Source: Verrucomicrobiota bacterium (GTDB taxonomy: Bacteria; Verrucomicrobiota; Verrucomicrobiia; Opitutales; Cerasicoccaceae). Taken from it: 64,000 nt of DNA. Each line of letters opens with the position of its first letter. Position 1 is the first letter of the stretch. Shown here piece by piece: positions 1,061 through 15,923 of this stretch. The notes below the pieces were generated by a model. The model did not search any database, was not told the origin of the DNA, and worked only from the letters and a program-made list of their open reading frames with translations. The stretch spans positions 352,001 through 416,000 of the forward strand of contig JBCBUK010000001.1 of assembly GCA_039818205.1 (NCBI GenBank), read 5' to 3'. The translations under genes were made by a program, and so were the position numbers.

Positions 1061-2560
1061 TTATTGGGTCATACTCTTAAGTAGTTTTCGTGAAAACCAT
1101 ACCCAGGGAACACCACAAAGCGCCCCTCGCCAGCCAAGCGACCACACACCACCATCGGACGGCATCGGGAATGCAAAAACCAATACGGCGAGAACCAATC
1201 CGAAACTTCCTAATGCCCAGAGAGTTCCGTCGAGATGAAACGCCAGGAAGTTACCGAGCTTAAGCTCAACCGCTCTCAGAGTGATTGGAATAACAAAAAA
1301 CCAGCCAACCACTGCCGTCGGTATTAAAGTACCCAAAGCGACTCCTAAAATCCCCAAAGAAAACACCAAAGCGAAGCTGATGGCGACATTGAGAACCGCA
1401 TCGATGACCGACAAACGTAGTAACACCTTCTCATGGCCAGTCATCATGAGAATGCGCTTGGTGCAGCTGTTGGTTAGTTGAGAACTATATATCGCCAATA
1501 GTAGTGCCTGGCCGACCCAGAACGCTTCGGCGGGCACCGTTTCAAGACCGGTTAACAATCGAATCAAGCCATCAAGATATACTGCTGAAAGCACATAGGC
1601 CGGTGTTACAACCAACAGCGTTAATCGCGAGCTACGCAACAGCAACTCGCGCAAACCAGCCTCATCACCACTCGCTTTCAATTGCGCCGCTGCGGGCGAT
1701 AGCGCCGATTGCAGTTGCACGCTAAACAGGTTCAGCATTTCGCCCATTTTGAAACCAGCCTGGTAAATCGCGACGGCGGCGACTCCCACCGTTAAGCTGA
1801 TTACCAGCTGATCACTCTTGGCCATGATCAAGTTGCTGAAGGTAATCAGATAGGCCGCAATAGAGAAACTCATTTGGGCTTTTACCGCCCTCCATTCGAA
1901 CAGCTTCGGTGCCAGGGAAAGCTGCTTGATCAAGCGAAAGGCGAAGAAAGCGGCGAAGATATTGGGAATCAAACTCGATACCACGCTGATCGCCATCAAG
2001 GCAGGAAATGGCCACTCTAAGGCAAGAGCTGTGACAATCACGGAAAAGTGGAGTACGGTGTTCCCCACCCCAACCCAGTTCGCTAAATCGATTCGTTGCA
2101 TTCCTCGCAACACTTCGGGAAACAACCCGAGCGGAAACGTCAGGGCCATGCCAATAAAGAAAATGACGTATGCGCTGCTGAATGCATCCCAGTCGTTGGC
2201 CGAGACCGAAACCGCCTCCATAAAGTATGGGCGCAGAAGAATAAAAACTGTCACCAAACCGACCGCCAGGCCAACGAAGGTCCAAAAGATTGTTGATAGC
2301 AGGCGATTCAATCCGGCGTAATCACCCTGAGCCATCTTCTCGGCGACTGCTTTCTGGGCGGTGAAACCAAATCCAAAATCCAGCAAGACGCCGTAACCAA
2401 ACAAAGACCAAAGCAAAGACCAGAAACCAAACGCTTCTTCGCTTAAACCGCTAAACAGTTGGCGAAATAGAATCAAACCAAGGACCAGGCGCAGAACCAC
2501 CTGCACATAGCTGCTACCCGTATTCGCCCAAAAGCGACGCTTCCATTCCGGCTTATCCAC
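1061..2560 (-). CDS. Wzx-like oligosaccharide flippase (polysaccharide biosynthesis/MOP family)
   Basis: About 500 aa with many hydrophobic helices; DFGFG, SDQLVIS and LGILGVALGT motifs typical of flippases; lies among glycosyltransferases. GTG at 2560, preceded by GGAGG, is preferred over TTG at 2566. Confidence 0.85.
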   Translation of the reverse strand: MDKPEWKRRFWANTGSSYVQVVLRLVLGLILFRQLFSGLSEEAFGFWSLLWSLFGYGVLLDFGFGFTAQKAVAEKMAQGDYAGLNRLLSTIFWTFVGLAVGLVTVFILLRPYFMEAVSVSANDWDAFSSAYVIFFIGMALTFPLGLFPEVLRGMQRIDLANWVGVGNTVLHFSVIVTALALEWPFPALMAISVVSSLIPNIFAAFFAFRLIKQLSLAPKLFEWRAVKAQMSFSIAAYLITFSNLIMAKSDQLVISLTVGVAAVAIYQAGFKMGEMLNLFSVQLQSALSPAAAQLKASGDEAGLRELLLRSSRLTLLVVTPAYVLSAVYLDGLIRLLTGLETVPAEAFWVGQALLLAIYSSQLTNSCTKRILMMTGHEKVLLRLSVIDAVLNVAISFALVFSLGILGVALGTLIPTAVVGWFFVIPITLRAVELKLGNFLAFHLDGTLWALGSFGLVLAVLVFAFPMPSDGGVWSLGWRGALCGVPWVWFSRKLLKSMTQ

Positions 2561-3683
2561 CGGCAACCTCCCGATAGACTGCCTCGCACTGTTCGGCGAC
2601 CAGGTCCCATCGATACTTAGCTGCCCATTCTCGTCCCATCGCGACCCGCTCAGCTCGCTCGCTCTGGCTTAGGCTGCCCATCTTGCCAAGGGCTTCAGTC
2701 ATCGATTCTACCGACATTGGATCGAACTCAATCGTCGCTGGCCCGTTAACTTCAGCGAGGCTTGTCGCGTGTGACGATACAGCCATCGTCCCACAGGCCT
2801 GGGCTTCAATGACCGGGAAACCGAAACCCTCCATCAATGACGGAAACACGAGCGCCTCGGCTGCCGCATACCAAAGTGCGAGTTCATCATCCTCAATGAA
2901 ACCCGCCATCCGAATCGAACGCTGATGCTTCGACGCTTCCCAAGCGGCATCAATTGCTTCCTTACCATGCCAAGGCGCACCACCGAGAACCAAGTCCCAG
3001 TCCAAGCCACTGGATTCGCGAAACCGACCAAAGGCTTCGATCAATCGCACATGGTTTTTTGCCGGATGTTCAAAACGGGCGATGTAAATTAGATACGGCT
3101 TCGTCAGCTGATGTTTGATCCGAAACGTGGATAACGAGTCTTCATTCGCCGGCCGAAAACGCTCATGGTCGATTCCGTTCGGAATAACTCGCAGGCGATC
3201 AGCGGAAACTCCGAGGTAGTTTTTAATATCCTCACCTGCCGTCGCGCTCACCGCAATCACGCGATCCATGCGACGAGCGATCCAAGGAACGACCTTCCTG
3301 CCGAAAAAGCCCCGAAGCGCATCATACTTCTCCGCCAAGATGAATGGCGCACAGTCGTGTATCGTGGCAACCTGCGGAGCGGAGCTTCGAACGACCATCC
3401 GCCGATAGCTTGGGATGTGAACAACATCGAAGTCTCCTTTTTTGATAATTCCCGGAAGGACCGCCTGGTGCCAAAGCAAATTCACCGCCCCGCTGCTGGC
3501 CTTCGGGTGAATGCTTACCCAGCGATCATCTGCGATCCAGGGAAACAGTGAGCGATCGGAATCCAGGCCAACAATAAAGACATCGATGCCGCGGGTGCAG
3601 AGGTGTTGGCTCAGCGCGATGACATAGCGCCCAACACCGGAACGCCCCCCTTGGACCATGCCGGCTGAGAGTAACAGCTTAAT
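2553..3683 (-). CDS. Glycosyltransferase family 4 (GT-B)
   Basis: TIHD, VIAVS, IPNGID, KNHVRL and EGFGFPVIEAQACG motifs. The start is uncertain; an ATT at 3683 behind AGGAGG is proposed (see findings). Confidence 0.9.
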   Translation of the reverse strand: MKLLLSAGMVQGGRSGVGRYVIALSQHLCTRGIDVFIVGLDSDRSLFPWIADDRWVSIHPKASSGAVNLLWHQAVLPGIIKKGDFDVVHIPSYRRMVVRSSAPQVATIHDCAPFILAEKYDALRGFFGRKVVPWIARRMDRVIAVSATAGEDIKNYLGVSADRLRVIPNGIDHERFRPANEDSLSTFRIKHQLTKPYLIYIARFEHPAKNHVRLIEAFGRFRESSGLDWDLVLGGAPWHGKEAIDAAWEASKHQRSIRMAGFIEDDELALWYAAAEALVFPSLMEGFGFPVIEAQACGTMAVSSHATSLAEVNGPATIEFDPMSVESMTEALGKMGSLSQSERAERVAMGREWAAKYRWDLVAEQCEAVYREVAGG

Positions 3684-5160
3684 GAGCTGCCCCTCCTGCT
3701 GCGGGCTCCAACAAGAACTCTTGCAACCGCAAAAGCTTGATGACGTACCGCAGTTGCTCACTTGGATCGACAATCAACAAACTACCATTGCGTTCGAGCA
3801 TGCGTCGGCGCGCCATCAGCAATGCCGTCACGCCATTACTATCAATGAAGTTCACGGCCGAGCAATCGATCGCTAGAGTCCGTGCTCCAGGATCAGCCTC
3901 AATCAATGCATTTAGCTCAGCGGACAACTGCTTCACGTTGGAACGGTCGATCGTATCGATCAATTCGTAGCGTATCGTTATCGGTTCTTCGCCCTCGTCA
4001 CTGTCAGTGGCTGGGGTGATCTCAGATAATGATGCTTGAAATACGTTCTCATCGCTGAAGAAACGAAACAGAGAATCGAGCCGAACCGCCTTCAGCGCAC
4101 TCATCACGCTTTCCGAAGGGGACAACAATCCGAATGCTTGATTCCGTTCTCGGGCTTGACGGGCAAGCTTGGCCAGTGCGCCCATGCCCGCACTATCCAT
4201 AAAATCAACCTCACTGAGATCGAGTAGCACTGGCTGCTTCCAGTCCTCTGGTTGCGGTAGGTCGTCAACGTTCACCCGCTCAGCGGCTCCTTTCCAAGCC
4301 AACCGCTGAATTGCAACCGACTTGGACGGCAGTGGCTCAGCACTTGGTAGGCTAGCGGGTCGATTCGTTGAACGCCGGCGTTTGGACAGCCATTGTTTCA
4401 TGGTAACCCAACTGAGAAAAAAGAAATCACGTGCGTATCGGCTAAAGAGTCGTTTGGGGTTCGTGCCCATGCGCCAGAGCCATTCCATCCCAGTCTTTTG
4501 CATCCAGATCGGCGCTCGTATCTGCTTTCCTGATATGAAGTCCAGCGACGCACCAATACCGATTCCGAGCGACGCTCCCGTCTCCTTAAAATACTGGTAG
4601 ATCCATTCCTCCTGCTTTGGACAGCCCAAAGCGACGAGCAATACATCCGCATTGGCCGCACGCACCCGCCGCACGACCGCTTCGTTGTCCCACTCGTGCA
4701 CCTGACCCATTGGCGGAGATTCGAACCCAACGATATCCAGGCCAGGCATCCGCTGGCGCAAGAGCTCCACGACCTCACCCAAAGCCGTGTCGTCACTTCC
4801 AAAGAAGTAGACCTTGCTGCCGATCTGAGCACTGAGCTCCAAAAGCTTAGGCGTTAAATCCGAACCCGCTACCCGCTCCCGCAAAGGATGACCCAGAATC
4901 TTGGAGATCCAAATCAACGGCATACCGTCGCAAACAACTCGTCTCGCATAAAATAGGATACGACGCAGTTCTTCGTTCTCAAATGCCTGGGCGGCAAAGT
5001 CGACGTTCGCCGTTACGAAATAAGCTGGCTTGCCGGTTTCCAATACGTGTCGGCATTCCAACAAGGTTTCCTCCATCGTCAAATCATGGAAGGGCAAACC
5101 CAACAACACGGCGATCGGCGGTTCGTGGTGAGAGTCGCTGCTATCTGGTTGAGAGCTCAT
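3679..5160 (-). CDS. WecB/TagA/CpsF (GT26) glycosyltransferase fused to two C-terminal STAS domains
   Basis: GT26 motifs VTANVDF, CDGMP, ERVAGSDL, VALGCPKQE, GIGASLDF, RAPIWMQKTGMEWLWR. These are followed by STAS motifs LDLSEVDFMDSAGMGAL and IDCSAVNFIDSNGVTAL. Likely start MSSQPD at 5160. Confidence 0.9.
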   Translation of the reverse strand: MSSQPDSSDSHHEPPIAVLLGLPFHDLTMEETLLECRHVLETGKPAYFVTANVDFAAQAFENEELRRILFYARRVVCDGMPLIWISKILGHPLRERVAGSDLTPKLLELSAQIGSKVYFFGSDDTALGEVVELLRQRMPGLDIVGFESPPMGQVHEWDNEAVVRRVRAANADVLLVALGCPKQEEWIYQYFKETGASLGIGIGASLDFISGKQIRAPIWMQKTGMEWLWRMGTNPKRLFSRYARDFFFLSWVTMKQWLSKRRRSTNRPASLPSAEPLPSKSVAIQRLAWKGAAERVNVDDLPQPEDWKQPVLLDLSEVDFMDSAGMGALAKLARQARERNQAFGLLSPSESVMSALKAVRLDSLFRFFSDENVFQASLSEITPATDSDEGEEPITIRYELIDTIDRSNVKQLSAELNALIEADPGARTLAIDCSAVNFIDSNGVTALLMARRRMLERNGSLLIVDPSEQLRYVIKLLRLQEFLLEPAAGGAAH

Positions 5161-6370
5161 TAGAGGTTCGTAGTCGTTGGAGTTTTTGGATGAGTCGCTC
5201 GCCAAGCGCTGCCCAGGTATAGGTATCCAGCACTTTAGAACGTCCCGCACTAGCGAGTTTTCGCCGCAAACTTGCGTTGTCGATTAGCTGCACACAGGCA
5301 TCGGCAAAATCAGCGGCGCTATCGGCTAGGAGCAACTCGTGGTCATGGTCCAAATCTAAACCTTGTGCACCCAAGGTCGTCGAAACGACCGGATTAGTCA
5401 TCGACAAGCCTTCGACAATTTTTAGGCGCGTCCCGCCGCCAATGCGCAGTGGAACGACCTGCATCCAAGCCTTTTGATAAAAAGGGCGCACATCGGGCAC
5501 CTCCCCTTCGAAAACAACCCCTGGCTGCTTCGCATACGCCTTGACCTCTTCGGTCGGATTCTTGCCAACCAAAATGAGTTGGTAGTCGGGTCGCTCACTC
5601 AAAATGCGATGATGGATTTCGTCAAAATACCAACGCATCGCGTCCGTATTAGGCGTGTAATCAAGCGCACCGCAAAATAAAGCGCTGGGATAGACGGTTG
5701 GCTCCGGTGGCCACTCAGTCGCATCGAAAAAATCGGTATTGGCACCGTTGGGCAGAACATAAACTCTTTCGGGCAATCCCAAGCGTTCATCGAGGAAATC
5801 CTTGTCTTCGAGACCGCAAACCACCTCGAGCGAGATCTGTTGGATTACCTCGCGCTCAGCCCGAGCAATTTTCATGAGATTCTCACGACGCATGAATCTG
5901 CCCCAGGCCGTGTCGTTCAGCGTAGCCAACTCCTCCCGTTGAAACAACCAGTCGACGCGGCTCCGATCCATCACCAGACAATTATGGTCCGCGAAAAACC
6001 GTTTCACGTAGGGCCACAAAACGATATCGACCCAGAAGATACAGTCATAAGACTGACCGGAAACAAACTCACCAAGTGCCCGCTCAACATCCGGTGAATA
6101 CCAATGCCGGATGGTGGTCGGCTGTGGGTTCCAGACACGATCTGTCCAGAAAGACGGCCAAGGCGGGTGTTGGAAGTCAGAAAACTCGACCCGCTCACAC
6201 ATTGCCTGGAATCGATCAAGTTGTTCGTGATCCTCGGGTTCAGTAGACAGGCAAAAGAGATCGACCGAAAATGCCTCGGCCAGTTGCTCGGTCAAGTGAA
6301 ACACGCGCTGGAAAGTGCCCCGGCGAATGGGAAACGGAACGTATGGTAATATGACCAGCAACCGCTTCAT
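5141..6370 (-). CDS. Glycosyltransferase family 4 (subtype common in PEP-CTERM/EPS loci)
   Basis: PFPIRRG N-terminus, FCGALDYTPN, GEVPDVRPF, PLRIGGGTRLKIVE, VVSTTLGAQG. Confidence 0.88.
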   Translation of the reverse strand: MKRLLVILPYVPFPIRRGTFQRVFHLTEQLAEAFSVDLFCLSTEPEDHEQLDRFQAMCERVEFSDFQHPPWPSFWTDRVWNPQPTTIRHWYSPDVERALGEFVSGQSYDCIFWVDIVLWPYVKRFFADHNCLVMDRSRVDWLFQREELATLNDTAWGRFMRRENLMKIARAEREVIQQISLEVVCGLEDKDFLDERLGLPERVYVLPNGANTDFFDATEWPPEPTVYPSALFCGALDYTPNTDAMRWYFDEIHHRILSERPDYQLILVGKNPTEEVKAYAKQPGVVFEGEVPDVRPFYQKAWMQVVPLRIGGGTRLKIVEGLSMTNPVVSTTLGAQGLDLDHDHELLLADSAADFADACVQLIDNASLRRKLASAGRSKVLDTYTWAALGERLIQKLQRLRTSNELSTR

Positions 6371-6374
6371 TGTC

Positions 6375-7466
6375 TTAGCTATAATAGCCCCACCATACTT
6401 CGTAAATATTATAGATGGCGTTCCACTCCGTATTTTCTATCGGCAGGTTCTTGCCAACCTGAACAAAATCCGGCGTTTCAGCATTCAATTGAACCAGCGC
6501 TCTCATCAATGCCCCTCGCGGATAATCGGTATAGGGCTGAAGAGCGGCCCCACGCTTGAGCCGATCACGCAGCGCCAATGCAAGGCAACGCAACGGCGAT
6601 TCATCGGGGAACAAACGCTCATTTGCCTTCGCGTATTGGTCGGCACTTCCGAAACTCCTTCCCAGACGCTCACCTTCAACTGCCAAATAGACATCCAACC
6701 ACAAAGAACGCAGCCGATCGTTTTGCCCTTTGAGGTCAAGGGACATCGGTGGCTCGACCGGGCGCTGCTTGAAGTCAACGCCCGTTGCATGTAGTTGACG
6801 AATTTCATCAGTAAGCAGCGGGTGCTCAAGCGCAGCAACCAACTGTTTACGGGTCTCACAGAACGCATTGTGTTGGCCTGATATACATAGAACTGCATCG
6901 CCCAACGCCAAAGCGAGTTTCATGTGTTGACGATAAATGAAATCCTCAGCGCCCGAAACTTCCAACTTGCACCGAGCGAAAAACAAGCCACTACCGCGGT
7001 TCCACAAAAGTCGCGTCGCTTCAACTTTGTGTATGAGTTTGGGATCCATTTTCGAATGCCATTTTGCCAAGTAATCATCGGGACCCACGACAACCAGATG
7101 TCCCATGATCAAATCGTGAAACATCATGGAGGATTCTGCGTTTTTGAGATTTCCAGGAGACACGCAGGTTACCTCGACATCGATTGACAAAGCCTCGCTT
7201 TCGGTCCGCTCAAACGCCTTTACTCGCTTTCGCAAAGCGTCGTCTTCCGGGCTCTCCGTAAAGAGAAAATAATCGAGGTCATTAAACAATTTAGGCGTAT
7301 CGCCATCAACGAATACGCCCCCTTCACCGCGGCCATAGCCGCCACCCAAGACTAATGCCTCTATTGATGTAGATTCGTCAGTATCAAAGTAGGCTTTTGC
7401 ACGCGCAATGTGTTCTTCCAGTTGCTTCAACAGGGAAGAAAATGTCCCGTTGAAATAGCGCGCCAT
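6375..7466 (-). CDS. Pol-beta-type nucleotidyltransferase-like protein
   Basis: LVLGGGYGRGEG followed by NDLDY (hG[GS]...DxD), a later IDVE strand and a helical C-terminal region. The substrate is unknown. Confidence 0.65.
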   Translation of the reverse strand: MARYFNGTFSSLLKQLEEHIARAKAYFDTDESTSIEALVLGGGYGRGEGGVFVDGDTPKLFNDLDYFLFTESPEDDALRKRVKAFERTESEALSIDVEVTCVSPGNLKNAESSMMFHDLIMGHLVVVGPDDYLAKWHSKMDPKLIHKVEATRLLWNRGSGLFFARCKLEVSGAEDFIYRQHMKLALALGDAVLCISGQHNAFCETRKQLVAALEHPLLTDEIRQLHATGVDFKQRPVEPPMSLDLKGQNDRLRSLWLDVYLAVEGERLGRSFGSADQYAKANERLFPDESPLRCLALALRDRLKRGAALQPYTDYPRGALMRALVQLNAETPDFVQVGKNLPIENTEWNAIYNIYEVWWGYYS

Positions 7467-7469
7467 ATG

Positions 7470-7781
7470 CTAATTCTCTAAATTAAATACTGTGTTCAGG
7501 CGAAGGAGCTCAACGACACTGAGCACCTCAGGGCTAAGGTTGGTCAGCGATAGCGGTCGAACACCCCCACGAAGAGAGTTGTTCAAATGCAGAAGCGCGC
7601 CCAGCCCCGAGCTATCAATAAACGCAAGTCCAGAGCAGTCGACGACGACCTTCCCAGCTTGCGGAAGATCGAGCATTCCAAGCTCCTGTTTGAACTCTGC
7701 TGCATTCGCCGCCTCCAAATGGGAAGTCTTTAATTGGATAACGAATGCCTCACTTTGTTCTTGGGTCTCAAATAATGGCAT
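7470..7781 (-). CDS. Stand-alone STAS protein (anti-sigma-factor antagonist, SpoIIAA/RsbV/SypA-like)
   Basis: 103 aa; VVVDCSGLAFIDSSGLGALL with the phosphoacceptor Ser; C-terminal LLRLNTVF. Confidence 0.9.
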   Translation of the reverse strand: MPLFETQEQSEAFVIQLKTSHLEAANAAEFKQELGMLDLPQAGKVVVDCSGLAFIDSSGLGALLHLNNSLRGGVRPLSLTNLSPEVLSVVELLRLNTVFNLEN

Positions 7782-7880
7782 AGGGCAAAAACGCTTAGAA
7801 TAAAAACTATCAATAAATCACCATTCTTTCCTTGGCAATGCAAGCTTAGAGATATTAACTATATAGAAACCTTAGCAACC
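7782..7880. promoter_or_regulatory. AT-rich divergent intergenic region, presumed to hold promoters for both operons
   Basis: 99-bp AT-rich gap between the divergent starts at 7781 and 7881. No promoter elements could be assigned with confidence. Confidence 0.5.
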
Positions 7881-8609
7881 ATGGCGGATGATGAAATTCA
7901 CCCCACACTGAATCAATTTTGGTCAACCCAGGAAGGCCAAAGTGAAATTCTCAAGTGGCGAAAAAACATGCGTCGCAAAATTAGTTTTTGGCGACTAACG
8001 ATCGCGTTCAGCCAAACGAGCAAACGCGTTCTCGATATCATTGGTTCCGCAGCGGCCCTCATCGCATTCTCCCCGATTTTCGCGATCACGGCGATCCTGA
8101 TAAAATTGGAAGACCGGGGGCCAATATTTTTCTCTCAGACTCGGGTTGGAGAAGCGGGCCGAGCATTCCAATGCTTCAAGTTTCGCTCAATGGTCGTTAA
8201 TGCCGATCAGATCAAAGAAAAGCTAAGTGAACAAAATCAGCACGACGACGGGGTCACCTTTAAAATGAAAGACGACCCGCGGATAACGAAAGTCGGCAAG
8301 TATATCCGCAAACTGTCCATCGACGAATTCCCTCAGTTCTATAATGTATTGCGTGGAGACATGTCACTCGTCGGACCGCGCCCACCGGTTCCGAAAGAAG
8401 TCGCCGAATACAAGGCCTTTCACCTGCGTCGCCTCATGGTTAAGCCCGGCATTACCTGTCTGTGGCAAATTGGCGGCCGCGCGGATATCGACTTCGAAGG
8501 GCAAGTGCGTCTCGATCTCGAATACATTGGATCCCAGAATCTCAAACAAGACCTACACATACTACTGAAGACCGTACCCGCCGTTATCCTCGGTAAGGGT
8601 GCCTACTAG
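7881..8609 (+). CDS. Priming undecaprenyl-phosphate sugar-phosphate transferase (Bac_transf family)
   Basis: KRVLDI, FFSQTRVG, FKFRSM, DDPRITKVGKYIRKLSIDEFPQFYNVLRGDMSLVGPRP, KPGITCLWQ, RLDLEY, GKGAY. Confidence 0.95.
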   Translation: MADDEIHPTLNQFWSTQEGQSEILKWRKNMRRKISFWRLTIAFSQTSKRVLDIIGSAAALIAFSPIFAITAILIKLEDRGPIFFSQTRVGEAGRAFQCFKFRSMVVNADQIKEKLSEQNQHDDGVTFKMKDDPRITKVGKYIRKLSIDEFPQFYNVLRGDMSLVGPRPPVPKEVAEYKAFHLRRLMVKPGITCLWQIGGRADIDFEGQVRLDLEYIGSQNLKQDLHILLKTVPAVILGKGAY

Positions 8610-8614
8610 CTACA

Positions 8615-9760
8615 ATGAGTCACCTCGTTACTGAAGCAGCTACCTTATCACTGGTCTGCCCGGACTGGTTTTACCTGGAACACGAGCTCAAATTGCCGGA
8701 CCCCTTTGTGCTCTGGCCCGTAGGCGACCAACCCCTGCTCTACCATTGGTTCGATTATGCCTTGGACCAGGGCTACAAATGTGTCCGAATATTTGTTACT
8801 GATCGGCCGGATCGCGTGCGCGAAGCCGTTAACCAAGCCACGCTTTGGCCGATAATGCTAGAGGTGGTCACGGTTTCTCAATCTCGCGAAGACGACGGTG
8901 TGGTAATAGGCGGCCTGCCGGATGGCGAAGCCTTGGCCCTTCCGGAAAACGAATGGGACATACTCAGGCACTGGCAAAAGATGGATTCTGATTGGCTTCG
9001 GATGACCGAAGATGAGTCTTTGAAAGTCAATCTGTCTGTCGGTCGCCTCTGTCGAATTCACCCAACGGCCAAACTGGTTGCGCCCTACCTTATCGGTGAT
9101 CACGTCGCAATCGGCCCAGGAGCAACTATTGGACCCAACGCTGTTGTTGGCAGCGGCTCGATGGTCGCGGAGGATACCGTCGTAAAAAACGCGCGACTGA
9201 TGCCGCATAGCTTCCTCGGAGCCCACCTGACACTTGAGAAAGCAATCCTCTATGGACGGGTACTCTTCAATTGCAAACACCGCGCACGAATCGAACGGAT
9301 CGAATCCTTTATCGCGGACTCGGTGATTCCTCGCAATGATGCCCCACCCTGGTCCGAACGAATTGTTGCACTCGGCTACTGGATCCGTTTTCAGTTCATC
9401 CTAAAAGTCGGCCTCGCAAAGAAAAGTCCCCGCATCACGCTCAACGGCAAAAGCTATCCTGGTCCGGTCAATCCACCCTTATGGGCCGAACGTCTTCCCC
9501 GAATCTGGGAGGTCGTCTGCGGGCGCATGCGCCTATTTGGGCCCTTGCCACGATCCGACGAACAGCTCGAGCAGATACCGATCGATTGGCGCCCCATTCT
9601 CCGCGAAGCCATCCCCGGCGCCATCGCCTACAGCGATTGCCTTGGCTGCCACGACCCCAATGACCCAACGGAAGCCCTTCACGCGGTTTATCAAATCACG
9701 CATCCGGAGCAAACCCAGCCCCAATGCGAATACTTTCTCAAACAGCTAACCCACCACTAA
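8615..9760 (+). CDS. Chimeric protein: degenerate NTP-transferase N-terminus + left-handed beta-helix + degenerate sugar-transferase C-terminus
   Basis: PFVLWPVGDQPLLYHW resembles the PKPLxPV motif; hexapeptide repeats IHPTAKLVAPYLIGDHVAIGPGATIGPNAVVG; ERLPRIWEVVCGRMRLFGPLP resembles [21 protein letters not shown]. Confidence 0.65.
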   Translation: MSHLVTEAATLSLVCPDWFYLEHELKLPDPFVLWPVGDQPLLYHWFDYALDQGYKCVRIFVTDRPDRVREAVNQATLWPIMLEVVTVSQSREDDGVVIGGLPDGEALALPENEWDILRHWQKMDSDWLRMTEDESLKVNLSVGRLCRIHPTAKLVAPYLIGDHVAIGPGATIGPNAVVGSGSMVAEDTVVKNARLMPHSFLGAHLTLEKAILYGRVLFNCKHRARIERIESFIADSVIPRNDAPPWSERIVALGYWIRFQFILKVGLAKKSPRITLNGKSYPGPVNPPLWAERLPRIWEVVCGRMRLFGPLPRSDEQLEQIPIDWRPILREAIPGAIAYSDCLGCHDPNDPTEALHAVYQITHPEQTQPQCEYFLKQLTHH

Positions 9761-9769
9761 GGAACATCT

Positions 9770-10303
9770 ATGAAAGGTATGGTATTCACCGAACTCTTGG
9801 ATATGGTCGAAGATAAGTTCGGCATCGATATGGTCGATAACATCATTGATGACGCCGATCTGCCCGTTTCCAACGGTTCTTACACGGCGGTAGGCACCTA
9901 TCCGCACGAAGAAATTGTCTCACTCGTCATGCAACTCAGCAAGCATAGCGGGATCTCTCCCGACGGTCTGCTAAAAGTATTCGGAGAGCACCTTTTCGCC
10001 CGTTTTCACAAGGGCTACCCCCACTTCTTCGAAAGCGCGACGGACGCCTTTTCGTTCCTACAAAACATCGACCAGTATATTCACGTTGAGGTCCGCAAGC
10101 TCTACCCCGATGCCGAGCTACCAAAGTTTGACTGTGAACTAAACGAGAATCAGCTAAAGATGACCTATTCTTCGTCTCGTCATATGGAAGACTTCGCCGA
10201 AGGGCTGATACAAGGCTGCCTTAACCACTTTGAAGAAGAAGCCGATATTGCTCGGGAACCGGTCGATGACAATACAACGGTCTTTCTCGTGACCCATCGC
10301 TAG
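9770..10303 (+). CDS. hnoX: H-NOX heme NO-binding protein
   Basis: MKGMVF N-terminus; proximal His in YIHVEVRKLYPDAELP; YSSSR (YxSxR heme motif); GLIQG. Confidence 0.92.
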   Translation: MKGMVFTELLDMVEDKFGIDMVDNIIDDADLPVSNGSYTAVGTYPHEEIVSLVMQLSKHSGISPDGLLKVFGEHLFARFHKGYPHFFESATDAFSFLQNIDQYIHVEVRKLYPDAELPKFDCELNENQLKMTYSSSRHMEDFAEGLIQGCLNHFEEEADIAREPVDDNTTVFLVTHR

Positions 10304-10319
10304 ACGGTGGGCAGGTTGA

Positions 10320-12740
10320 ATGAGTGACGAAAGCGACAAGTGGAAACGGCGCTACGAGCGCGAACGGAATGCCCGTAAGCAGGCCGAACAACTGCTCGAA
10401 GAAAAGTCGCTCATGCTCTACGAGAAAAACGTCGAGCTCGAGAAACTAAGCGCACAGCTCGCCGAAACCGTAGAACGGCGAACGGAGGAACTTCGTTTTT
10501 CGACCAGCAAACTGCGCGAGCAGGAGGAACGAATGTCGTCACTCGCCGAGACCTTCCCCGGCGTAATCTTCCAATGGGTCGAACGGAGCAACGGTGAATC
10601 TGGCTTCAACTACATGAGCCCACGCGTCGAGAAGATCTTCGGGTTCAGCGCTACCAACGCGATCAAAGATTGGCACCGGATGCAGATTCACTACGACGAT
10701 GTGCCCGCGTGGCAGGAGTCGATAAAAGAAGCTCTCCAATCGATGTCGGAGTGGCGGTGCACCGGGCGTCTGGTCACACCCAGTGGAGAAACCAGGTGGT
10801 GGCAAGGCTACGGCAAACCGTTAAGAGTGTCGGAAACCGAGGTCGCCTTCAACGGAGTCTTTCTCGACATCAGCCAGCAGAAACAAATAGAAGCGCAGAT
10901 TCGCCGGCTTTCATTGGTCGCAAGCCGAACCATCAATGGCGTCGTCATTACCGACGAGAACGGTCGTGTCGTGTGGATCAACGAAGCTTTCGAAAGAATT
11001 ACCGGATATACTCTCCAAGAACTCCGCGGACGTAAACCCGGCGAGCTCCTCCAGGGACCATTAACTTGCCGGAAAACAATCAAATACATCGGAGAGAGGC
11101 TTAAGGAAAAACAGCCGCTTACAGCCGAACTCCTAAACTACCACAAAAACGGTGAGACCTATTGGCTGCGCCTCGACGTAAACCCGCTCTTCGACGAAAA
11201 AAATCAGCTCACGAATTTTGTGGGCATCGAGACAGACATTACCAAGCAAAAGGAAACGGAGACTGCTCTGAAACTGGCTTCGGAACATGCGCAGGAAGCC
11301 GCCAAGGAAGCCAATCGAGCCAACCAGGCAAAAAGCCGTTTTCTCGCCAGCATGAGCCACGAGATCAGGACACCGCTGAACGGGGTCCTCGGCTATACAC
11401 AGGTCCTCAACATGAGGGATGACCTACCCGAAGATGCTGCCGGCATGATCGAGTCCATCGGACGCAGCGGAGAACACCTGCTTCATCTGATTAATGATAT
11501 TCTCGACATTTCAAAGATCGAGGCGGGCAAATACGAACTGACCGGTGGCGATGTCCTCTTACAAGAGATTTTACGCGACCTGCTGGACATGTTTAGCCCG
11601 AATGCTGAGCTAAAATCGATTCGCTACGATTGCGTTTGTTGGGACTTTGAACGCGACACGCCACTAGCGGACGATAACTTCTACTTCCAAGCCGACGCCC
11701 GTGCCTTACGGCAGATCCTCCTAAACCTGGTCGGCAATGCGATCAAGTTTACTAAGCGCGGGCACGTCCTAGTCAAAGCAGGTCCGGATTCCGCATCATC
11801 ACTCAAGTTTATCGTCGAAGATACCGGAGCTGGAATCCCTGAAGAAGACCACCAACGAATCTTTGAAACCTTTGAGCAGTCCAACCAAACGAACAGCAAA
11901 GTTGCTGGAACCGGTTTGGGTCTGCCAATCTGTCGAAAGCTGGTTGGCCTCATGGAAGGCAGCATGCGTCTGGAGTCAGAAGTCGGCAAGGGATCTCGAT
12001 TCTCGTTCGATATTCCTTATATCAAGCCGAAAGAAATTCACTCGACCTATGTTCCTGTCCAAAAACTCCAGAAGGTTCACTACGTTGGACCGAAGAAAGA
12101 CATTCTTGTTGTCGATGACGATGAGCACAGCCGCCGGGTTACCAAGGAGCTACTGATCGCAGCCGGTTTCCGGGTTACCTCGGTCTCCTCCGGCGAAGAC
12201 GCACTCCACCATCTTTCACGCGAAATCCCTGACCTTGTCGCCACGGACTTGCTAATGCCAGAAATCGATGGCTTCGAACTGCGCCACCGGATCCGCGTTA
12301 CCCCAGCAATCCAACACCTACCCGTGATCGCGGTATCCGCCAGCGTCATGCAATCAGCCGAAAATGCGAGCCGCCTGAAGCCGTTTGCAGGCTTTATAGC
12401 CAAGCCCGTCAAAGCGGAAGATCTGTATCGACAGGTCGGCGAGGTTCTTGGTCTTGAATGGCAAACACCGAAATCGGAAGAAGAACAGCCTGATGATACT
12501 GAGATCTCACCTTCACCGCCCCTGGAAAAATCAATTCCGGATCGACCAGTACTCCAATCGCTCCTTGTCCTCGCCGAACAGGGTGATATGTTTGGACTAC
12601 AAAGCCAGATTGCTGAGATCCGCGAGGACTCACAGGAGCATTCCGAGTTCTATACCCAACTGCACGACCTCGCCGCCAGCTTTCAAAGCCAGGCGATCGA
12701 GGACCTTCTCAATGACTGTCTAGCCAATCACAAAGCATGA
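10320..12740 (+). CDS. H-NOX-associated hybrid histidine kinase (coiled coil-PAS-PAS-HisKA-HATPase-REC)
   Basis: N-terminal RERNARKQAEQLLEEKS coil; two PAS/PAC domains; FLASMSHEIRTPLNG, NLVGNAIKFT, DTGAGI, GTGLGL; REC with LVVDD and TDLLMP. No transmembrane helix. Confidence 0.93.
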   Translation: MSDESDKWKRRYERERNARKQAEQLLEEKSLMLYEKNVELEKLSAQLAETVERRTEELRFSTSKLREQEERMSSLAETFPGVIFQWVERSNGESGFNYMSPRVEKIFGFSATNAIKDWHRMQIHYDDVPAWQESIKEALQSMSEWRCTGRLVTPSGETRWWQGYGKPLRVSETEVAFNGVFLDISQQKQIEAQIRRLSLVASRTINGVVITDENGRVVWINEAFERITGYTLQELRGRKPGELLQGPLTCRKTIKYIGERLKEKQPLTAELLNYHKNGETYWLRLDVNPLFDEKNQLTNFVGIETDITKQKETETALKLASEHAQEAAKEANRANQAKSRFLASMSHEIRTPLNGVLGYTQVLNMRDDLPEDAAGMIESIGRSGEHLLHLINDILDISKIEAGKYELTGGDVLLQEILRDLLDMFSPNAELKSIRYDCVCWDFERDTPLADDNFYFQADARALRQILLNLVGNAIKFTKRGHVLVKAGPDSASSLKFIVEDTGAGIPEEDHQRIFETFEQSNQTNSKVAGTGLGLPICRKLVGLMEGSMRLESEVGKGSRFSFDIPYIKPKEIHSTYVPVQKLQKVHYVGPKKDILVVDDDEHSRRVTKELLIAAGFRVTSVSSGEDALHHLSREIPDLVATDLLMPEIDGFELRHRIRVTPAIQHLPVIAVSASVMQSAENASRLKPFAGFIAKPVKAEDLYRQVGEVLGLEWQTPKSEEEQPDDTEISPSPPLEKSIPDRPVLQSLLVLAEQGDMFGLQSQIAEIREDSQEHSEFYTQLHDLAASFQSQAIEDLLNDCLANHKA

Positions 12741-13843
12741 ATCAGTCTACCAAAGCCACTATTCTTGTTGTTGATGATAACGCAACCAACCTAGCGGTTG
12801 TTTGCACCCACCTAACCAAACAAGGGTTTCGTATGCTAACGGCTGAGAGCGGACCCAGTGCCCTCAGGCGACTCGATCATATTTCTCCAGACATGTTGCT
12901 CCTGGATGTCATGATGCCTGAGATGGATGGGTTTGAACTCGCACAAAGGATTCGCGAACGCGAGGACTACAACAACCAGCCAATCATCTTCATGACCGCG
13001 CTCGACGACATGAACAGCAAACTCCAAGGCTTTGCCAGTGGAGGCGTCGATTACATCACGAAGCCCATTCAGCATGAGGAGATGATCGCACGCGTTCGCA
13101 CTCACCTCGAAGTCCATCAGCTCCGGGTCGCATTGCGCAGAGAAAACGAAAACAAGGATCAACTCATCGCTGAGCTCGAAGCATACGATATGACGGTCGC
13201 GCACGACCTAAAGAATCCCATCGGTGCCATTGCCAGTGCCGCCGAAACCTTCGAGATGATGGATGACCTGACCAACGATGAGGCCAAAGAAATCATCGAG
13301 TTGATCCGAATGGGAGCCGATCAAGCACAAAACATTATCAGAGGACTTCTATCGTTTGCTCAGCTTCGCAGCGGCGAGGCTCAACGTTCGGAGGTCGACA
13401 TGGATCAGCTCGCTCGGGAATGCATTGAAACCTTGCACAGCCTTTCTGCCGAAAGCGGTGCCTCAATCGAGATCGACGGTGAGTTACCCGCGGCCTATGG
13501 TTACGCTCCGTGGTTAAGTGAAGTGTGGTCGAACCTGATCAGCAACGCGATCAAGTATGGTGGGCACCCGCCCATCATCACGATCAAGGGAGAAACATTG
13601 GAAAAGAACGTACGCTATTGCGTTGCCGACAATGGCAGTGGACTCCCTGAAGATCGCACCACCCTCTTTAAGCCGTTTTCTCGCGGAACGAGCGCCCACA
13701 CCGAGGGAACCGGGCTGGGCCTTTCCATCGTCGAACGCATCATCCGGCGCCACGAAGGTTCGATCCTCGCGGAAGACCGACCTGGCGGTGGCGCAGCAAT
13801 GACGTTCTACCTACCTAAGACCGACCGCAACCATGCTGAATAA
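12737..13843 (+). CDS. REC-HisKA-HATPase hybrid kinase/response regulator
   Basis: ILVVDDN, LLDVMMPEMDG, DYITKP; AHDLKNP; NLISNAIKY, DNGSG, GTGLGL. ATGA overlap with the upstream gene. Confidence 0.92.
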   Translation: MNQSTKATILVVDDNATNLAVVCTHLTKQGFRMLTAESGPSALRRLDHISPDMLLLDVMMPEMDGFELAQRIREREDYNNQPIIFMTALDDMNSKLQGFASGGVDYITKPIQHEEMIARVRTHLEVHQLRVALRRENENKDQLIAELEAYDMTVAHDLKNPIGAIASAAETFEMMDDLTNDEAKEIIELIRMGADQAQNIIRGLLSFAQLRSGEAQRSEVDMDQLARECIETLHSLSAESGASIEIDGELPAAYGYAPWLSEVWSNLISNAIKYGGHPPIITIKGETLEKNVRYCVADNGSGLPEDRTTLFKPFSRGTSAHTEGTGLGLSIVERIIRRHEGSILAEDRPGGGAAMTFYLPKTDRNHAE

Positions 13844-15551
13844 GGAGCAATACATCATTGATCAAAGTACGGTAACGGTTCAACAGGTGCGCGTCCGGGC
13901 CTCATTGGAAGCCGTTCATCCTGTTCGAGAAATGTTTGTTGCCTATTTGGAGTCAGTTGATGTGTCTGCCTCCGAGATCGGCGGTTGGAAGCTGGTATTT
14001 ACAGAGCTACTCAACAACGCCATCATCCATGGTTCTGGTGAAAATGATTCGGAATCAATTGAGATCGAATGGTCGTTGAGCAACCGGGCGATTCAGCTTT
14101 GCATCGAAGATCCGGGGACTGGGCCAACAAAAAGTCAGGAGATTGAAGCAACGCTGCCCGAGAATCCTGAGCAGGACCACGGACGAGGCCGATTCATTAT
14201 CCAGTCTTTCGCCGACCGGGTTGCGGAATGGAGAACAACCAACGGGTTTCGAATCGAAGTCGAGAAAGGGTGTCGGGAATCCGGAGGAATCGAACCACCA
14301 TCCGAAGAGATGGAGGCCATTCTCAAAGAACTATCCGCCAGCTACGAAGGCCTTGCCGCATTCTATCAGCTGAGTGAGTCGCTGGTCAAATCAGACACTT
14401 TGAGCATCCTGCTGGACCAAAGTCTGCGCAATGTACGGGAAAGCATTGTGCTCGACTACCTTTGCATCTTCCCGATGTCTGATTTGCCGCCCTTCATCCA
14501 AACTCAGTTTAGACAGGTCGCTCAGATCATTGATGATGTCCCAACTCCAATTCACGGTCTTCTGCAGCGCAAGTGCGAGATCGTTTGGGAAAATCCGGAT
14601 CAGCAAGCCGCTCTCGATGCTGGAGTAAATCCGATCGCCGAGTTTAGCTCAGGATGCTTGCTGCCAATAACCTCGGAAGAAAACTTCTTCGGTTTACTCG
14701 CCGCAGGACGCCGCCGCGGCTCAAACCAAATCGTGTCCTCACAAGTCAACAACCTGCGTACGTTCGCTGATATTTTTGGAATTGCGATTGCCAATTTCAT
14801 TTCCACAACGATCCGGCACGAAGCAGAAAAAGACTTACGCGAATTCGAAATCGCCGCAGAAATCCAACAACACCTGCTGCCAATTCGGCAACCAATCGAA
14901 CCCATGAAACATGAGGTTCGAGTGTTTCAACGAGTCGCCCAGAATGTAGCGGGCGACTATGCTGAATACTGTCAGGATAGGCTAGGCAACCACTACCTAA
15001 CCATTATCGACGTCATGGGCAAAGGCGTGTCGGCGGCAATGCTCGGAATTCTGTACCGAGCCGCCCTCAATCTACTCCTAAGCACACCCAAGCCACTGCC
15101 CGTCATGCTTGAGCAAATCGGGCGCGTCCTCAATTTCATGTTGGGTGATCTAACGATGTTCATCACCGTGACGATTCTGCGTTGGAATGACGAAGTCGAC
15201 ATGATCGAACATGTCAACGCAGGCCATTGCCCGACGGTTAAAATATCTGAAGATGGAACCATCCAACAATTTGAGCCCTCTGGTCCGCCAATTGGATTGT
15301 TGGCCGAATACCGCTATGAGAGTGACACCATTGAGATGGAACCTGGGGATCGCGTCATTTTGGTTTCGGATGGATGCTATGAATGGAAGACCAACGATTC
15401 GATATTCGGGTGGGAGCGATTAATCGACCTTATTAGAGAAGGTAACCACCCTCACGGCGCTCAGCTCTGGCACGCGCTTTGCCAAATAATGGACCTAGGC
15501 CCCAATGGCGAGGAACCCGCCGACGACATTACCCTCGTGTTTCTAAAGTAA
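13833..15551 (+). CDS. RsbW/SpoIIAB-like Ser kinase + GAF-like + SpoIIE/PP2C phosphatase fusion
   Basis: Kinase motifs ELLNNAIIHG, EDPGTG, HGRGRFII; GAF-like LLPI...FFGLL...FADIFGIAIAN; PP2C motifs IQQHLLP, AGDY, DVMGKG, NAGH, SDG, DDIT. Confidence 0.88.
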   Translation: MLNKEQYIIDQSTVTVQQVRVRASLEAVHPVREMFVAYLESVDVSASEIGGWKLVFTELLNNAIIHGSGENDSESIEIEWSLSNRAIQLCIEDPGTGPTKSQEIEATLPENPEQDHGRGRFIIQSFADRVAEWRTTNGFRIEVEKGCRESGGIEPPSEEMEAILKELSASYEGLAAFYQLSESLVKSDTLSILLDQSLRNVRESIVLDYLCIFPMSDLPPFIQTQFRQVAQIIDDVPTPIHGLLQRKCEIVWENPDQQAALDAGVNPIAEFSSGCLLPITSEENFFGLLAAGRRRGSNQIVSSQVNNLRTFADIFGIAIANFISTTIRHEAEKDLREFEIAAEIQQHLLPIRQPIEPMKHEVRVFQRVAQNVAGDYAEYCQDRLGNHYLTIIDVMGKGVSAAMLGILYRAALNLLLSTPKPLPVMLEQIGRVLNFMLGDLTMFITVTILRWNDEVDMIEHVNAGHCPTVKISEDGTIQQFEPSGPPIGLLAEYRYESDTIEMEPGDRVILVSDGCYEWKTNDSIFGWERLIDLIREGNHPHGAQLWHALCQIMDLGPNGEEPADDITLVFLK

Positions 15552-15554
15552 GTC

Positions 15555-15923
15555 ATGAAAGAGATAATTGTAGTCGACGACGACATCACGATGATACGCC
15601 TGCTTCAGTTGCATTTGCGCCGGGCGAAAATCAAAGGGCACTACTTTCAATCTGGCCAACAGTGTTTACAAGCCGCCGCCGGGATAAACGCAGACCTTGC
15701 CTTGCTCGACTACGACCTGCCCGACACCAAGGGCACCTTGCTAATGAGGTCCCTACGCGAGATTCCAGGCTACGAGGAGCTGCCGGTGCTCATTTTCACC
15801 GCACGAACCAGTAGTGAATTACTTCCCAAGATCAAAGAGTCCGGGGCGAACACCGTCCTTTCGAAACCCTTTAGCCCAACCCACTTGATCCGCCAGATCG
15901 AGAGCTTCCTTACCCAAGAGTGA
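15555..15923 (+). CDS. Single-domain response regulator (REC)
   Basis: IIVVDDD, LLDYDLPD, FTA, KPF; 122 aa with no output domain. Confidence 0.9.
   Translation: MKEIIVVDDDITMIRLLQLHLRRAKIKGHYFQSGQQCLQAAAGINADLALLDYDLPDTKGTLLMRSLREIPGYEELPVLIFTARTSSELLPKIKESGANTVLSKPFSPTHLIRQIESFLTQE

Follow-up and report, generated by a model that had tools for sequence, protein, structure and literature searches.

A sigma-less serine partner switch with a swappable H-NOX/kinase input likely controls exopolysaccharide synthesis in a Verrucomicrobiota locus

How might a gas sensor act on a polysaccharide when the usual outputs are missing from its locus? Known H-NOX pathways use c-di-GMP enzymes or transcription factors to act on the biofilm matrix. 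The window analysed here, a stretch of 64,000 nucleotides from a marine-type Verrucomicrobiota bacterium, holds an H-NOX gene among exopolysaccharide (EPS) genes (Table 1). A preliminary description had placed the priming phosphoglycosyl transferase (PGT), H-NOX, two kinases, an RsbW-GAF-PP2C protein and a lone receiver (REC) tightly packed or overlapping in one operon, and a lone STAS protein and a glycosyltransferase with two STAS domains on the divergent operon. Open reading frames and Pfam matches confirm both arrangements. They also agree with its failure to see a sigma factor, DNA-binding regulator, GGDEF, EAL, HD-GYP or Hpt domain, since none of the 23 proteins of 195-25570 matches sigma, HTH, GGDEF, EAL, HD-GYP or Hpt in Pfam. 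Its exclusion of a c-di-GMP output extends beyond the locus: GGDEF and EAL have no match each in the 99.97% complete genome, and a search of 30 related genomes gave GGDEF in only 4. The H-NOX output must therefore differ from c-di-GMP.

Table 1. Features of the EPS locus, in window positions.
Feature	Position	Strand	Basis
WecG-STAS-STAS (GT26 glycosyltransferase, two C-terminal STAS)	3679..5160	-	PF03808 + 2x PF01740
GT4 glycosyltransferase, TIGR03087-like	5141..6370	-	Pfam
Nucleotidyltransferase-like protein, marker for this EPS locus type	6375..7466	-	motifs, structure neighbours
Lone STAS protein, SypA-like, Ser57 in D-S-S-G	7470..7781	-	Pfam
Divergent promoter region, 99 bases	7782..7880	.	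genus-conserved block 7816-7845
Priming phosphoglycosyl transferase (PGT, Bac_transf)	7881..8609	+	PF02397 E 9e-67
Hexapeptide-repeat (LbH) protein, constant PGT companion	8615..9760	+	Pfam
H-NOX haem sensor	9770..10303	+	PF07700 152 bits
Soluble hybrid histidine kinase PAS-PAS-HisKA-HATPase-REC	10320..12740	+	Pfam
REC-HisKA-HATPase	12737..13843	+	Pfam
RsbW-type Ser kinase - GAF - coiled coil - PP2C phosphatase	13833..15551	+	Pfam, fold
Lone receiver (Asp52, Thr82, Lys104)	15555..15923	+	Pfam
Operon remainder: phosphodiesterase-family, CBS-domain pyrophosphatase, GT4, GT2, GT4	15920..22021	+	Pfam
Divergent operon remainder: GT4, Wzx flippase, DUF4114/PEP-CTERM-like protein	195..3773	-	

Successive gaps from the PGT through hexapeptide, H-NOX, hybrid kinase, REC-kinase and switch genes to the lone REC are 5, 9, 16, -4, -11 and 3 bases, and those of the next three downstream genes are -4, 12 and -4 bases. 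The full 3679-22021 gene order is preserved in 5 of 15 family genomes and is more than chance. Neither a sigma-70 nor a sigma-54 consensus was found in the 99-base divergent region. Its conserved block contains a CTTG-N6-CAAG dyad and, because this block is conserved in the genus, transcription is likely under outside control too, a point against control at the protein level alone.

The RsbW-GAF-PP2C protein is probably a bifunctional switch enzyme, judging from Pfam, fold and catalytic residues. The kinase residues E58/N62/G95/G97/G117-R118-G119 and the phosphatase residues D375/D393/D513/D564/D565 are invariant in 58 of 58 switch enzymes. The middle domain of the window protein has no Pfam match of its own; GAF_2 is matched at E<=1 by 33 of 52 orthologues, and the domain folds as a GAF (AF2 pLDDT 88; VIA Z 13.3, rmsd 3.3 over 146 residues to 3mmh). 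The three receiver residues of Table 1 are likewise invariant in 58 proteins, and 57 of 58 full-length loci have the receiver gene directly 3' of the switch gene, the one exception ending at a contig edge. The absence of the receiver after the switch gene in five loci (L181, L183, L184, L207, L208) counts against the model, as do the 12 of 63 switch loci without EPS genes, some of them on short contigs. A comparison of gene neighbourhoods had been proposed, and it shows that the switch travels with the EPS genes: homologues of those in the window occur at 51 of the 63 loci. The conserved core consists of the lone STAS, RsbW-GAF-PP2C and the lone receiver, usually amid EPS genes.

The lone receiver likely regulates the switch enzyme in trans. 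A predicted complex of REC with two RsbW-GAF chains scored 0.55, against 0.12 for the best of three controls, in a range (above our mark and up to 0.60) that holds 18 solved pairs and both of the mismatched pairs reaching the mark; overall, 116 of 157 solved pairs reached the mark, as did 2 of 215 mismatched ones. Partner pLDDT was at least 83 and at least 95% of contacts agreed between runs. The modelling hints weakly at contact between receiver and RsbW-GAF. In one EPS locus (L172), REC, PP2C and RsbW are fused in that order, and an Hpt is present, adjoining the PGT.

On the input side, the H-NOX protein carries His105, Pro118 and the Y133-x-S135-x-R137 haem motif, matches the structures 6OCV and 6BDE (E<1e-41) and is single copy in the genome. 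Its distal pocket has F142 and no tyrosine in 138-146; this column, which we take to be the position of the O2-binding tyrosine, is F, L or V in all 38 H-NOX. O2 binding by H-NOX requires a distal-pocket tyrosine (PMC8738867). By these residues, the window protein is likely NO-selective.

H-NOX occurs in 15 of 54 switch genomes vs 16 of 346 other genomes of the class. Among the 15 sampled genomes with both, the two lie about 10 kb or less apart in eight, in four families besides Cerasicoccaceae; in the other seven they are apart or on separate contigs, which counts against the model. The switch-side H-NOX proteins form two deep clades, each with different kinase partners; their grouping as one clade was rejected (p-AU 5e-51). 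Several further observations count against a fixed coupling in the model: 55 of 63 switch loci have no H-NOX, the same three-gene cassette stands alone in one genome (G013), and one H-NOX/EPS locus (L115) has a sigma-54 activator instead. The genome also carries a second STAS/RsbW-GAF-PP2C/REC module, with an Hpt and without EPS genes, whose switch is 33% identical to that of the window, as well as other STAS and RsbW genes. The circuit had been called self-contained, and this is overstated given the paralogous module, the solitary cassette and an H-NOX cassette at only 8 of 63 loci. Rather, the circuit is two-layered: the switch core is conserved and the H-NOX/kinase cassette is a swappable input, whose place other kinases take elsewhere.

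Between sensor and switch lie two kinases. The hybrid kinase has an N-terminal coiled coil, two PAS domains, HisKA with His347, HATPase and REC with Asp643. It ends in a 70-residue helical domain (735-806) with no conserved His, common to many cyanobacterial hybrid kinases. Profile comparison gave no likeness of this tail to Hpt, and its resemblance to that domain is at best a faint lead. REC-HisKA likely fills the Hpt role through His156, as its conservation suggests: His156-Asp157 is invariant in 13 of 13 aligned orthologues, the ATP-binding motifs are decayed in eight and the domain is deleted in one, and the Asp of the N-terminal receiver is lost in four. The window copy has an intact ATP-binding domain, which counts against the model, and because of this it may itself act as a kinase. 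ChpT/Spo0B-type histidine phosphotransferases retain the DHp His and have a decayed ATP-binding domain. The same combination, the domain being decayed or deleted, is seen in 9 of 13 REC-HisKA orthologues; unlike ChpT/Spo0B, REC-HisKA has an N-terminal receiver, and the ATP-binding domain of the window copy is intact. The Opitutales loci have REC-HisKA with the invariant His and a mostly decayed ATP-binding domain; the distant loci L175, L176, L177 and L192 have hybrid kinases with true Hpt domains.

The likely substrate and output of the switch, from its sequence, is WecG-STAS-STAS. Its frame spans 3679-5250 (523 aa), with a likely true start at the ATG at 5160 (493 aa). GT26 membership is indicated by 192 bits to PF03808 and by TagA (7MPK, E 1e-28, aligned over 49-273), and the TagA motifs DG, ERVAG, PKQE, RAP and EW are all retained. 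Ser353 and Ser471 (523-aa-frame numbering) lie within D-S-x-G motifs and are retained in 112 of 113 and 113 of 113 homologues. The PGT has no fused STAS. An orthologue match running into the STAS part was found in 34 of 400 class genomes. The switch is present in 31 of these 34 sampled genomes vs 23 of 366 others, kin not being independent, in support of a link between this glycosyltransferase and the switch. Outside the main EPS cluster, WecG-STAS-STAS lies about 3 kb or less from the switch gene in L179, L198 and L209. Six genomes have a WecG orthologue and no switch match; two lost the STAS tail and four keep STAS and serine motif. Those four count against the model, and so does the lack of a WecG-STAS match, at the threshold applied, from 23 of the 54 switch genomes. 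Because of these 23 genomes and the EPS-less switch loci, GT26 cannot be the sole switch output.

Altogether, we give somewhat better than even chances to a sigma-less serine partner switch controlling EPS synthesis at the protein level, with the H-NOX/kinase cassette as its likely NO input. Gene order, domains, catalytic residues and co-occurrence are the observed basis; from them we infer each transfer of phosphate, each binding event, the identity of ligand and substrate, and whether the effect is positive or negative. The hybrid kinase would autophosphorylate at His347 and pass the phosphate to its own Asp643, then to His156 of REC-HisKA, acting as phosphotransferase, and on to Asp52 of the lone receiver. 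The latter would bind the RsbW-GAF half in trans and set the phosphatase mode, as a split SypE. When dephosphorylated, the STAS domains (two on the GT26 enzyme, plus the lone STAS) would allow the polymer to be assembled. Inhibition of the kinase by NO-bound H-NOX would leave the switch enzyme in kinase mode, with the STAS domains phosphorylated and EPS off. Since sensor, relay and serine switch lie amid EPS genes beside a STAS-bearing glycosyltransferase, NO likely stops the polysaccharide at the enzyme level rather than via a transcription factor or c-di-GMP. A more specific version is tentative, and we put it somewhat below an even chance: a c-di-GMP-free route from NO to a glycosyltransferase, in which a Verrucomicrobiota-wide serine switch acquired H-NOX kinases from two separate lineages, a free receiver toggles RsbW-GAF-PP2C in trans, a kinase-derived REC-DHp serves as Hpt, and the target is the STAS pair of GT26, the second-sugar enzyme.

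With the NO input unchanged, the lone STAS could instead be the true effector, SypA-like, acting on the PGT, the export machinery or another component, the GT26 STAS domains being docking sites or secondary substrates. No other partner accompanies the switch as constantly, EPS-less modules included, and the D-S-S motif of the lone STAS is retained in 40 of 40 copies adjoining the switch. Where the switch enzyme was not found it remains in the PGT-hexapeptide operon, with its serine motif decayed in two of three such cases. In G246, both serine motifs are gone from the WecG that adjoins switch and H-NOX, which counts against the model. SypA works through a protein target left unnamed in the literature (PMC10120452). 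We nevertheless find this reading unlikely: both fused STAS serines are nearly invariant, WecG-STAS-STAS accompanies the switch outside the main EPS cluster in several lineages, and the Anabaena fused STAS is a direct switch.

Two other readings are less probable. Canonical partner switching in trans, with RsbW holding a sigma encoded elsewhere (primary, group 2, FliA/WhiG-type or ECF) until STAS frees it to transcribe the EPS operons, appears distinctly improbable. Binding of the kinase domain to a sigma encoded elsewhere had been named beforehand as evidence that would speak against the model; no SigB/F/G sigma exceeds the TIGR02980 cut-off in the 37 genomes (the window genome and 36 other switch genomes), the best matches lying in RpoD-length frames, and in a control set containing B. 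subtilis 1 of 14 did. FliA/WhiG exceeds its cut-off in just 12 of the 36 switch genomes; in the remaining 24, among them all eight sampled with H-NOX adjoining the switch, it does not. Pfam recognised no sigma gene near the switch (90 of about 180 unassigned frames, 23 loci), and such a model has no need of a STAS fused to an enzyme. In its favour, the genome has 27 matches to sigma-70 region 2, one FliA/WhiG above cut-off and two extra RpoD/RpoS-like sigmas. The promoter block is conserved and non-consensus, stand-alone switch modules require another output, and in Chlamydia, of a sister phylum, Rsb proteins reportedly control the primary sigma. The H-NOX cassette might also be a passenger that shares the operon promoter and signals to regulators elsewhere, the switch being fed by other kinases or a GAF ligand. 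The cassette of G013, the 16 of 31 sampled H-NOX genomes without a switch, the majority of switch loci without a nearby kinase, and the five sigma-54 activators and other Hpt domains of the genome suit such a passenger. It is similarly improbable, as the slot between hexapeptide and switch genes holds other hybrid kinases with REC-HisKA in L075, L107 and L110 and REC-HisKA alone in L097, and two unrelated H-NOX clades adjoin the switch.

The protein-level switch that we favour was presented as the best candidate for an undescribed system. This did not hold: both halves have published precedents. In Vibrio fischeri, HnoX-HahK acts through SypF (Hpt), SypE and SypA to control syp polysaccharide (PMC12369376, PMC10120452, PMC4517449). 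The window resembles this system in that H-NOX and a hybrid kinase are placed upstream, its polysaccharide locus contains a lone STAS together with a bifunctional RsbW/PP2C enzyme, there is no cognate sigma and control is presumably exerted below transcription. Unlike in syp, the sensor is inside the operon, REC-HisKA stands in place of Hpt, a SypG-like activator is lacking, and the STAS-fused glycosyltransferase is a visible candidate target, lacking for SypA. A single RsbW-REC-PP2C chain as in SypE was not found; GAF holds the place of the receiver, which is a separate protein.

The second precedent is Anabaena PCC 7120 All4160/Alr3423/HenR (bioRxiv 10.64898/2026.04.08.717354; PMC13555669), where an RsbW-type kinase and a PP2C under receiver control switch a polysaccharide enzyme through its fused STAS, with no transcriptional step. 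There a Bac_transf carries a single STAS at its N-terminus, the kinase is a different protein from the phosphatase and unlinked to it, and no input is known. In the window, from another phylum, the STAS-bearing enzyme is a GT26 and has two such domains at its C-terminus, kinase and phosphatase form one bifunctional enzyme, and a gas sensor is linked. The Anabaena authors term the switch lineage-specific (PMC13555669). From canonical sigmaB/sigmaF-type systems the window has the RsbW-type kinase, PP2C and STAS with conserved Ser, and its genome has no SigB/F/G sigma over cut-off. The window shares with Bacillus subtilis RsbU/RsbT-RsbV-RsbW-sigmaB a PP2C after a coiled-coil linker and an N-terminal domain open to a trans partner (PMC12143880); unlike there, the likely partner is a receiver, a single chain carries both kinase and phosphatase, and sigmaB is absent.

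A decade on, SypA has no known target (PMC11112999, PMC10120452), and for the only STAS-switched polysaccharide enzyme demonstrated so far no input is known (PMC13555669). As sensor, relay, switch and candidate target lie in one locus of cultured marine Opitutales relatives, both questions become directly testable. If the more specific version of the model is true, a gas-to-enzyme path within one locus could be reconstituted with six soluble or peripheral proteins, and glycosyltransferases would be indicated as the target of SypA-type STAS proteins. The locus may also exemplify trans control of a Ser kinase/phosphatase by a receiver, and the decay of kinases to phosphotransferases.

The divergent operon runs past the window start, with exosortase, Wzy-like, GT4 and two Wza-type export genes. 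The TIGR03087-like GT4 is fused to WecG-STAS in some relatives. The nucleotidyltransferase-like protein has no Pfam match; its GGxYGRGEGG and ND motifs are conserved and its structure neighbours bear NTP_transf_2. Finally, a hexapeptide-repeat gene that the preliminary description omitted sits between the PGT and H-NOX genes, and is present in 48 of 63 switch loci.

The locus is real, conserved and uncharacterised. An ORF and Pfam scan of the window recovered every gene named in the preliminary description, with the domains it had stated, and bore out its remark that regulator, c-di-GMP and Hpt domains are absent: none of the 23 scanned proteins matches the sigma, HTH, GGDEF, EAL, HD-GYP or Hpt families. 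The plus-strand operon opens with a priming phosphoglycosyl transferase (PGT) and continues with a hexapeptide-repeat gene, the H-NOX gene, the hybrid kinase, the REC-kinase (REC-HisKA), the RsbW-GAF-PP2C gene (the switch enzyme), the lone REC and more EPS genes, with intergenic gaps of at most 16 bases from the PGT onward. The divergent operon holds the lone STAS and the GT26 fusion WecG-STAS-STAS, and extends beyond the window start to exosortase, Wzy-like and Wza-type genes. Homologues named as Cerasicoccus show 60-62% identity, which assigns the genome to the marine-type Opitutales (Verrucomicrobiota).

Positions of the features discussed (window coordinates unless a genome, contig or locus is named)
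Feature	Position	Strand	Remark
DUF4114 protein and adjoining exosortase	195-1031 and upstream (G000:C1:348346-352107)		DUF4114 protein with weak PEP-CTERM tail
WecG-STAS-STAS	3679-5160	-	GT26 glycosyltransferase
Nucleotidyltransferase-like orphan	6375-7466		
Divergent region	7782-7880		
Conserved block	7816-7845		CTTG-N6-CAAG dyad
PGT	7881-8609	+	start of plus-strand operon
H-NOX	9770-10303	+	
Hybrid kinase	10320-12740	+	
REC-HisKA	12737-13843	+	
Switch enzyme	13833-15551	+	
Lone REC	15555-15923	+	
Phosphodiesterase-family gene and CBS pyrophosphatase	15920-18661		
Giant open frame	25972-64000, on to G000:C1:426736	-	16,254 codons
Paralogous module	L111:3667-6515		own genome, contig C20
Orphan FliA/WhiG-type sigma	L135:8497-9261		own genome, contig C2
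H-NOX and cyclase pair	L122:2580-4343		Verrucomicrobiota MAG
FIST gene and two hybrid kinases	L124:2864-12248		
STAS-REC fusion	L192:10832-11533		

Scanning genome contigs for the switch enzyme yielded 63 loci, some genomes contributing more than one. All but 2 are titled Verrucomicrobiota; one exception is a MAG titled Zhongshania, with an Opitutales-like gene order. The linkage of signalling to EPS genes, on which the preliminary description turned, held in this set, since 51 of the 63 loci contain EPS homologues in their flanks. Within the same flanks, of at most 10 kb and on contigs that are often short, 22 loci carry a WecG-STAS gene and 8 an H-NOX. Of 58 full-length switch genes, 57 are followed directly by the REC gene, and the complete gene order is conserved in 5/15 family genomes and, as far as the contig end, in a sixth. 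Luteolibacter/Akkermansiaceae loci have no gene between the hexapeptide gene and the switch enzyme, a slot filled by H-NOX, kinase and REC-HisKA in 7 loci, by other PAS/GAF hybrid kinases with REC-HisKA in 3 (one of them without EPS genes) and by REC-HisKA alone in 1. Thus, the core stays constant and the sensor that feeds it can be exchanged.

The H-NOX contains His105, Pro118 and the YxSxR motif. Because its distal segment is devoid of Tyr, it is likely NO-selective by the criterion in the accessible part of PMC8738867. The hybrid kinase retains His347 and Asp643. Five aspartates of the phosphatase and the N-box and G motifs of the kinase never vary among 58 switch enzymes, 54 of which also have D93. 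Foldseek with the full-length model of this enzyme returned solely PP2C and RsbW among the matches listed; therefore the middle domain was folded alone, and structure comparison identified it as a GAF fold. Asp52, Thr82 and Lys104 of the lone REC are present in 58/58, and the lone-STAS serines are intact in all 40 aligned proteins. Those of the STAS pair fused to WecG are intact in 112/113 and 113/113, a count biased towards conservation because the 113 were taken from the top-scoring matches with lengths of 440-520 aa.

A hidden Hpt at the hybrid-kinase C-terminus was rejected as a relay step: no His is conserved there, profile comparison with three Hpt proteins was negative and the Atlas lead reached only 0.76. 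All of 13 REC-HisKA orthologues chosen from the surveyed loci share the His156-Asp157 pair. Of these, 8 have decayed N, G1 and G2 boxes, 1 has lost the ATP-binding domain to a deletion and 4 carry Asn in place of the receiver Asp. Judged from this alignment, selection preserves the histidine, the residue required for phosphotransfer. The REC-HisKA of the window is intact and may also act as a kinase or phosphatase.

In SypE of Vibrio fischeri the receiver lies between kinase and phosphatase (PMC10120452, accessible part), whereas the window enzyme has its GAF domain there and the receiver is encoded by the next gene. RsbT, which activates RsbU in trans through an N-terminal domain and linker (PMC12143880, accessible part), offers a model for control of the switch enzyme by a separate receiver. 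When the receiver was modelled together with two copies of switch residues 14-352 as a dimer, the predicted complex scored 0.55, against 0.12 for the best control; partner pLDDT was at least 83 and the runs share at least 95% of contacts. The mark was reached by 116/157 solved and 2/215 mismatched pairs, 18 solved pairs and both mismatches lying at 0.60 or below. This model hints that the receiver might bind the RsbW-GAF dimer. Another EPS locus of the same type, L172, encodes a fused REC-PP2C-RsbW and an Hpt next to the PGT. At L192, H-NOX and hybrid kinase head the operon of a STAS-REC fusion; the switch enzyme was not found at this locus and the WecG orthologue is without STAS.

Co-occurrence was surveyed in an even sample of 400 class genomes, own genome excluded, with 3 candidates scored per genome in the alignment searches; counts were made by hand from tables and kin are not independent. 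The switch enzyme was found in 54 genomes (a few by partial matches), H-NOX in 31 and both in 15, H-NOX being present in 15/54 switch genomes versus 16/346 switch-less ones. In 8 of the 15 the distance from H-NOX to the switch is no more than about 10 kb (four in family f34, one each in f42, f65, f85 and f90). Of the rest, 5 have it far off or, in a good assembly, on a different contig, and 2 have it on separate contigs in fragmented assemblies. In a tree of 38 of the 39 H-NOX domains (that of L122 was left out), the 16 switch-adjacent ones fall into two deeply split clades, a single clade being rejected. Members of one clade are paired with HNOBA-type kinases, an Hpt being carried by that kinase or the one after it; those of the other are paired with the coiled-coil kinase type found in the window. 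This split implies that H-NOX was recruited at least twice or replaced once; link loss adds to the scatter. The H-NOX of L122 is divergent from a REC-HNOBA-guanylate/adenylate cyclase gene, a bacterial sGC-like pairing. At L124, an EPS locus with the switch in a genome without H-NOX, a FIST (NosP-like) gene lies just beyond wzx together with two large hybrid kinases and may represent a third haem sensor acquired by the locus.

We lean towards a sigma-less serine switch acting on EPS synthesis at the protein level, with the H-NOX cassette as NO input and the fused STAS pair as output. A WecG orthologue occurs in 37/400 survey genomes; the match extends into STAS in 34, of which 31 have the switch, and at L179, L198 and L209 WecG-STAS-STAS adjoins the switch outside the main EPS cluster. 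Counted against this reading, 23/54 switch genomes have no WecG-STAS match, the WecG serine motifs are retained in 4/6 switch-less genomes with a WecG orthologue, and in genome G246 a WecG neighbouring the switch is without them. Strict co-loss of fused STAS and switch was rejected, being seen in 2/6 only; an RsbW-family match at 1e-10 is absent from 3/5 switch-less genomes tested. It was also counted against this reading that H-NOX is missing from 55/63 switch loci, that its cassette occurs without the switch in genome G013, that stand-alone switches exist without EPS genes, and that five loci have no lone REC after the switch enzyme. The main rival keeps the NO input and makes the lone STAS the true effector; that one or other of these post-translational EPS switches operates is probable.

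A c-di-GMP output was rejected, as the own genome (99.97% complete, one H-NOX copy) has 0 GGDEF and 0 EAL matches; GGDEF was found in 4/30 chosen genomes. Transcriptional outputs were also weighed. The own genome has 27 sigma-70 matches, one of FliA/WhiG type and none SigB/F/G above cut-off. SigB/F/G was found in 0/36 switch genomes, and FliA/WhiG in 12/36 versus 8/14 switch-less genomes. The own FliA/WhiG-type gene is an orphan, with no flagellar genes among the neighbours listed. Scans for sigma-70 promoters and terminators gave the same counts as shuffled sequence, and the sigma-54 consensus is absent from the divergent region in the own genus, with scattered matches elsewhere. One block of this region is conserved in four genus members and carries a dyad with exactly one exact occurrence in the own genome; a related CTTT(C/G)C..CAA element precedes the PGT in Luteolibacter-type loci. 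Because this block is conserved, transcriptional control from outside the locus was counted against the protein-level switch, as was the EPS locus L115, which pairs H-NOX with a sigma-54 activator.

The circuit had been called self-contained, which is too strong. It is not insulated from the rest of the genome, because the genome also encodes a paralogous STAS | RsbW-GAF-PP2C, REC, Hpt module on contig C20 (33% identity, no EPS genes), 11 STAS matches, several further RsbW and PP2C genes, 4 Hpt matches and the sigma genes. Similar EPS-free modules occur at L100, L104, L196 and L197.

The proposed working resembles that of SypE/SypA, with an output like All4160, but the locus belongs to neither system. 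HnoX of V. fischeri, when bound to NO, inhibits HahK, the kinase feeding SypF, and SypA, for which no target is known, is acted on by SypE at a level below transcription (PMC12369376, PMC11112999, PMC10120452, accessible parts). The STAS-Bac_transf enzyme All4160 of Anabaena is phosphorylated by Alr3423 and returned to activity by HenR (REC-SpoIIE); in the accessible text, in vivo phosphorylation and an enzyme effect are not shown and the upstream kinase is unknown (bioRxiv 10.64898/2026.04.08.717354, PMC13555669). The accessible journal version terms this strategy lineage-specific (PMC13555669). By analogy with both systems, NO would turn synthesis off and dephosphorylated STAS would turn it on. 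The literature searched, with few subscription papers and no supplements, yielded no description of GT26-STAS fusions or of the whole module.

The DUF4114 protein adjoins the exosortase, so sorted surface proteins may carry the glycan as well. The nucleotidyltransferase-like orphan, phosphodiesterase-family gene and CBS pyrophosphatase recur in EPS loci of the same type and likely form a module adding a phospho-substituent to the polymer; the first two are one fused protein in an Atlas cluster, and the nucleotidyltransferase-like marker is present in 37/401 class genomes. The giant open frame, two thirds of which is inside the window, has a signal-like N-terminus.
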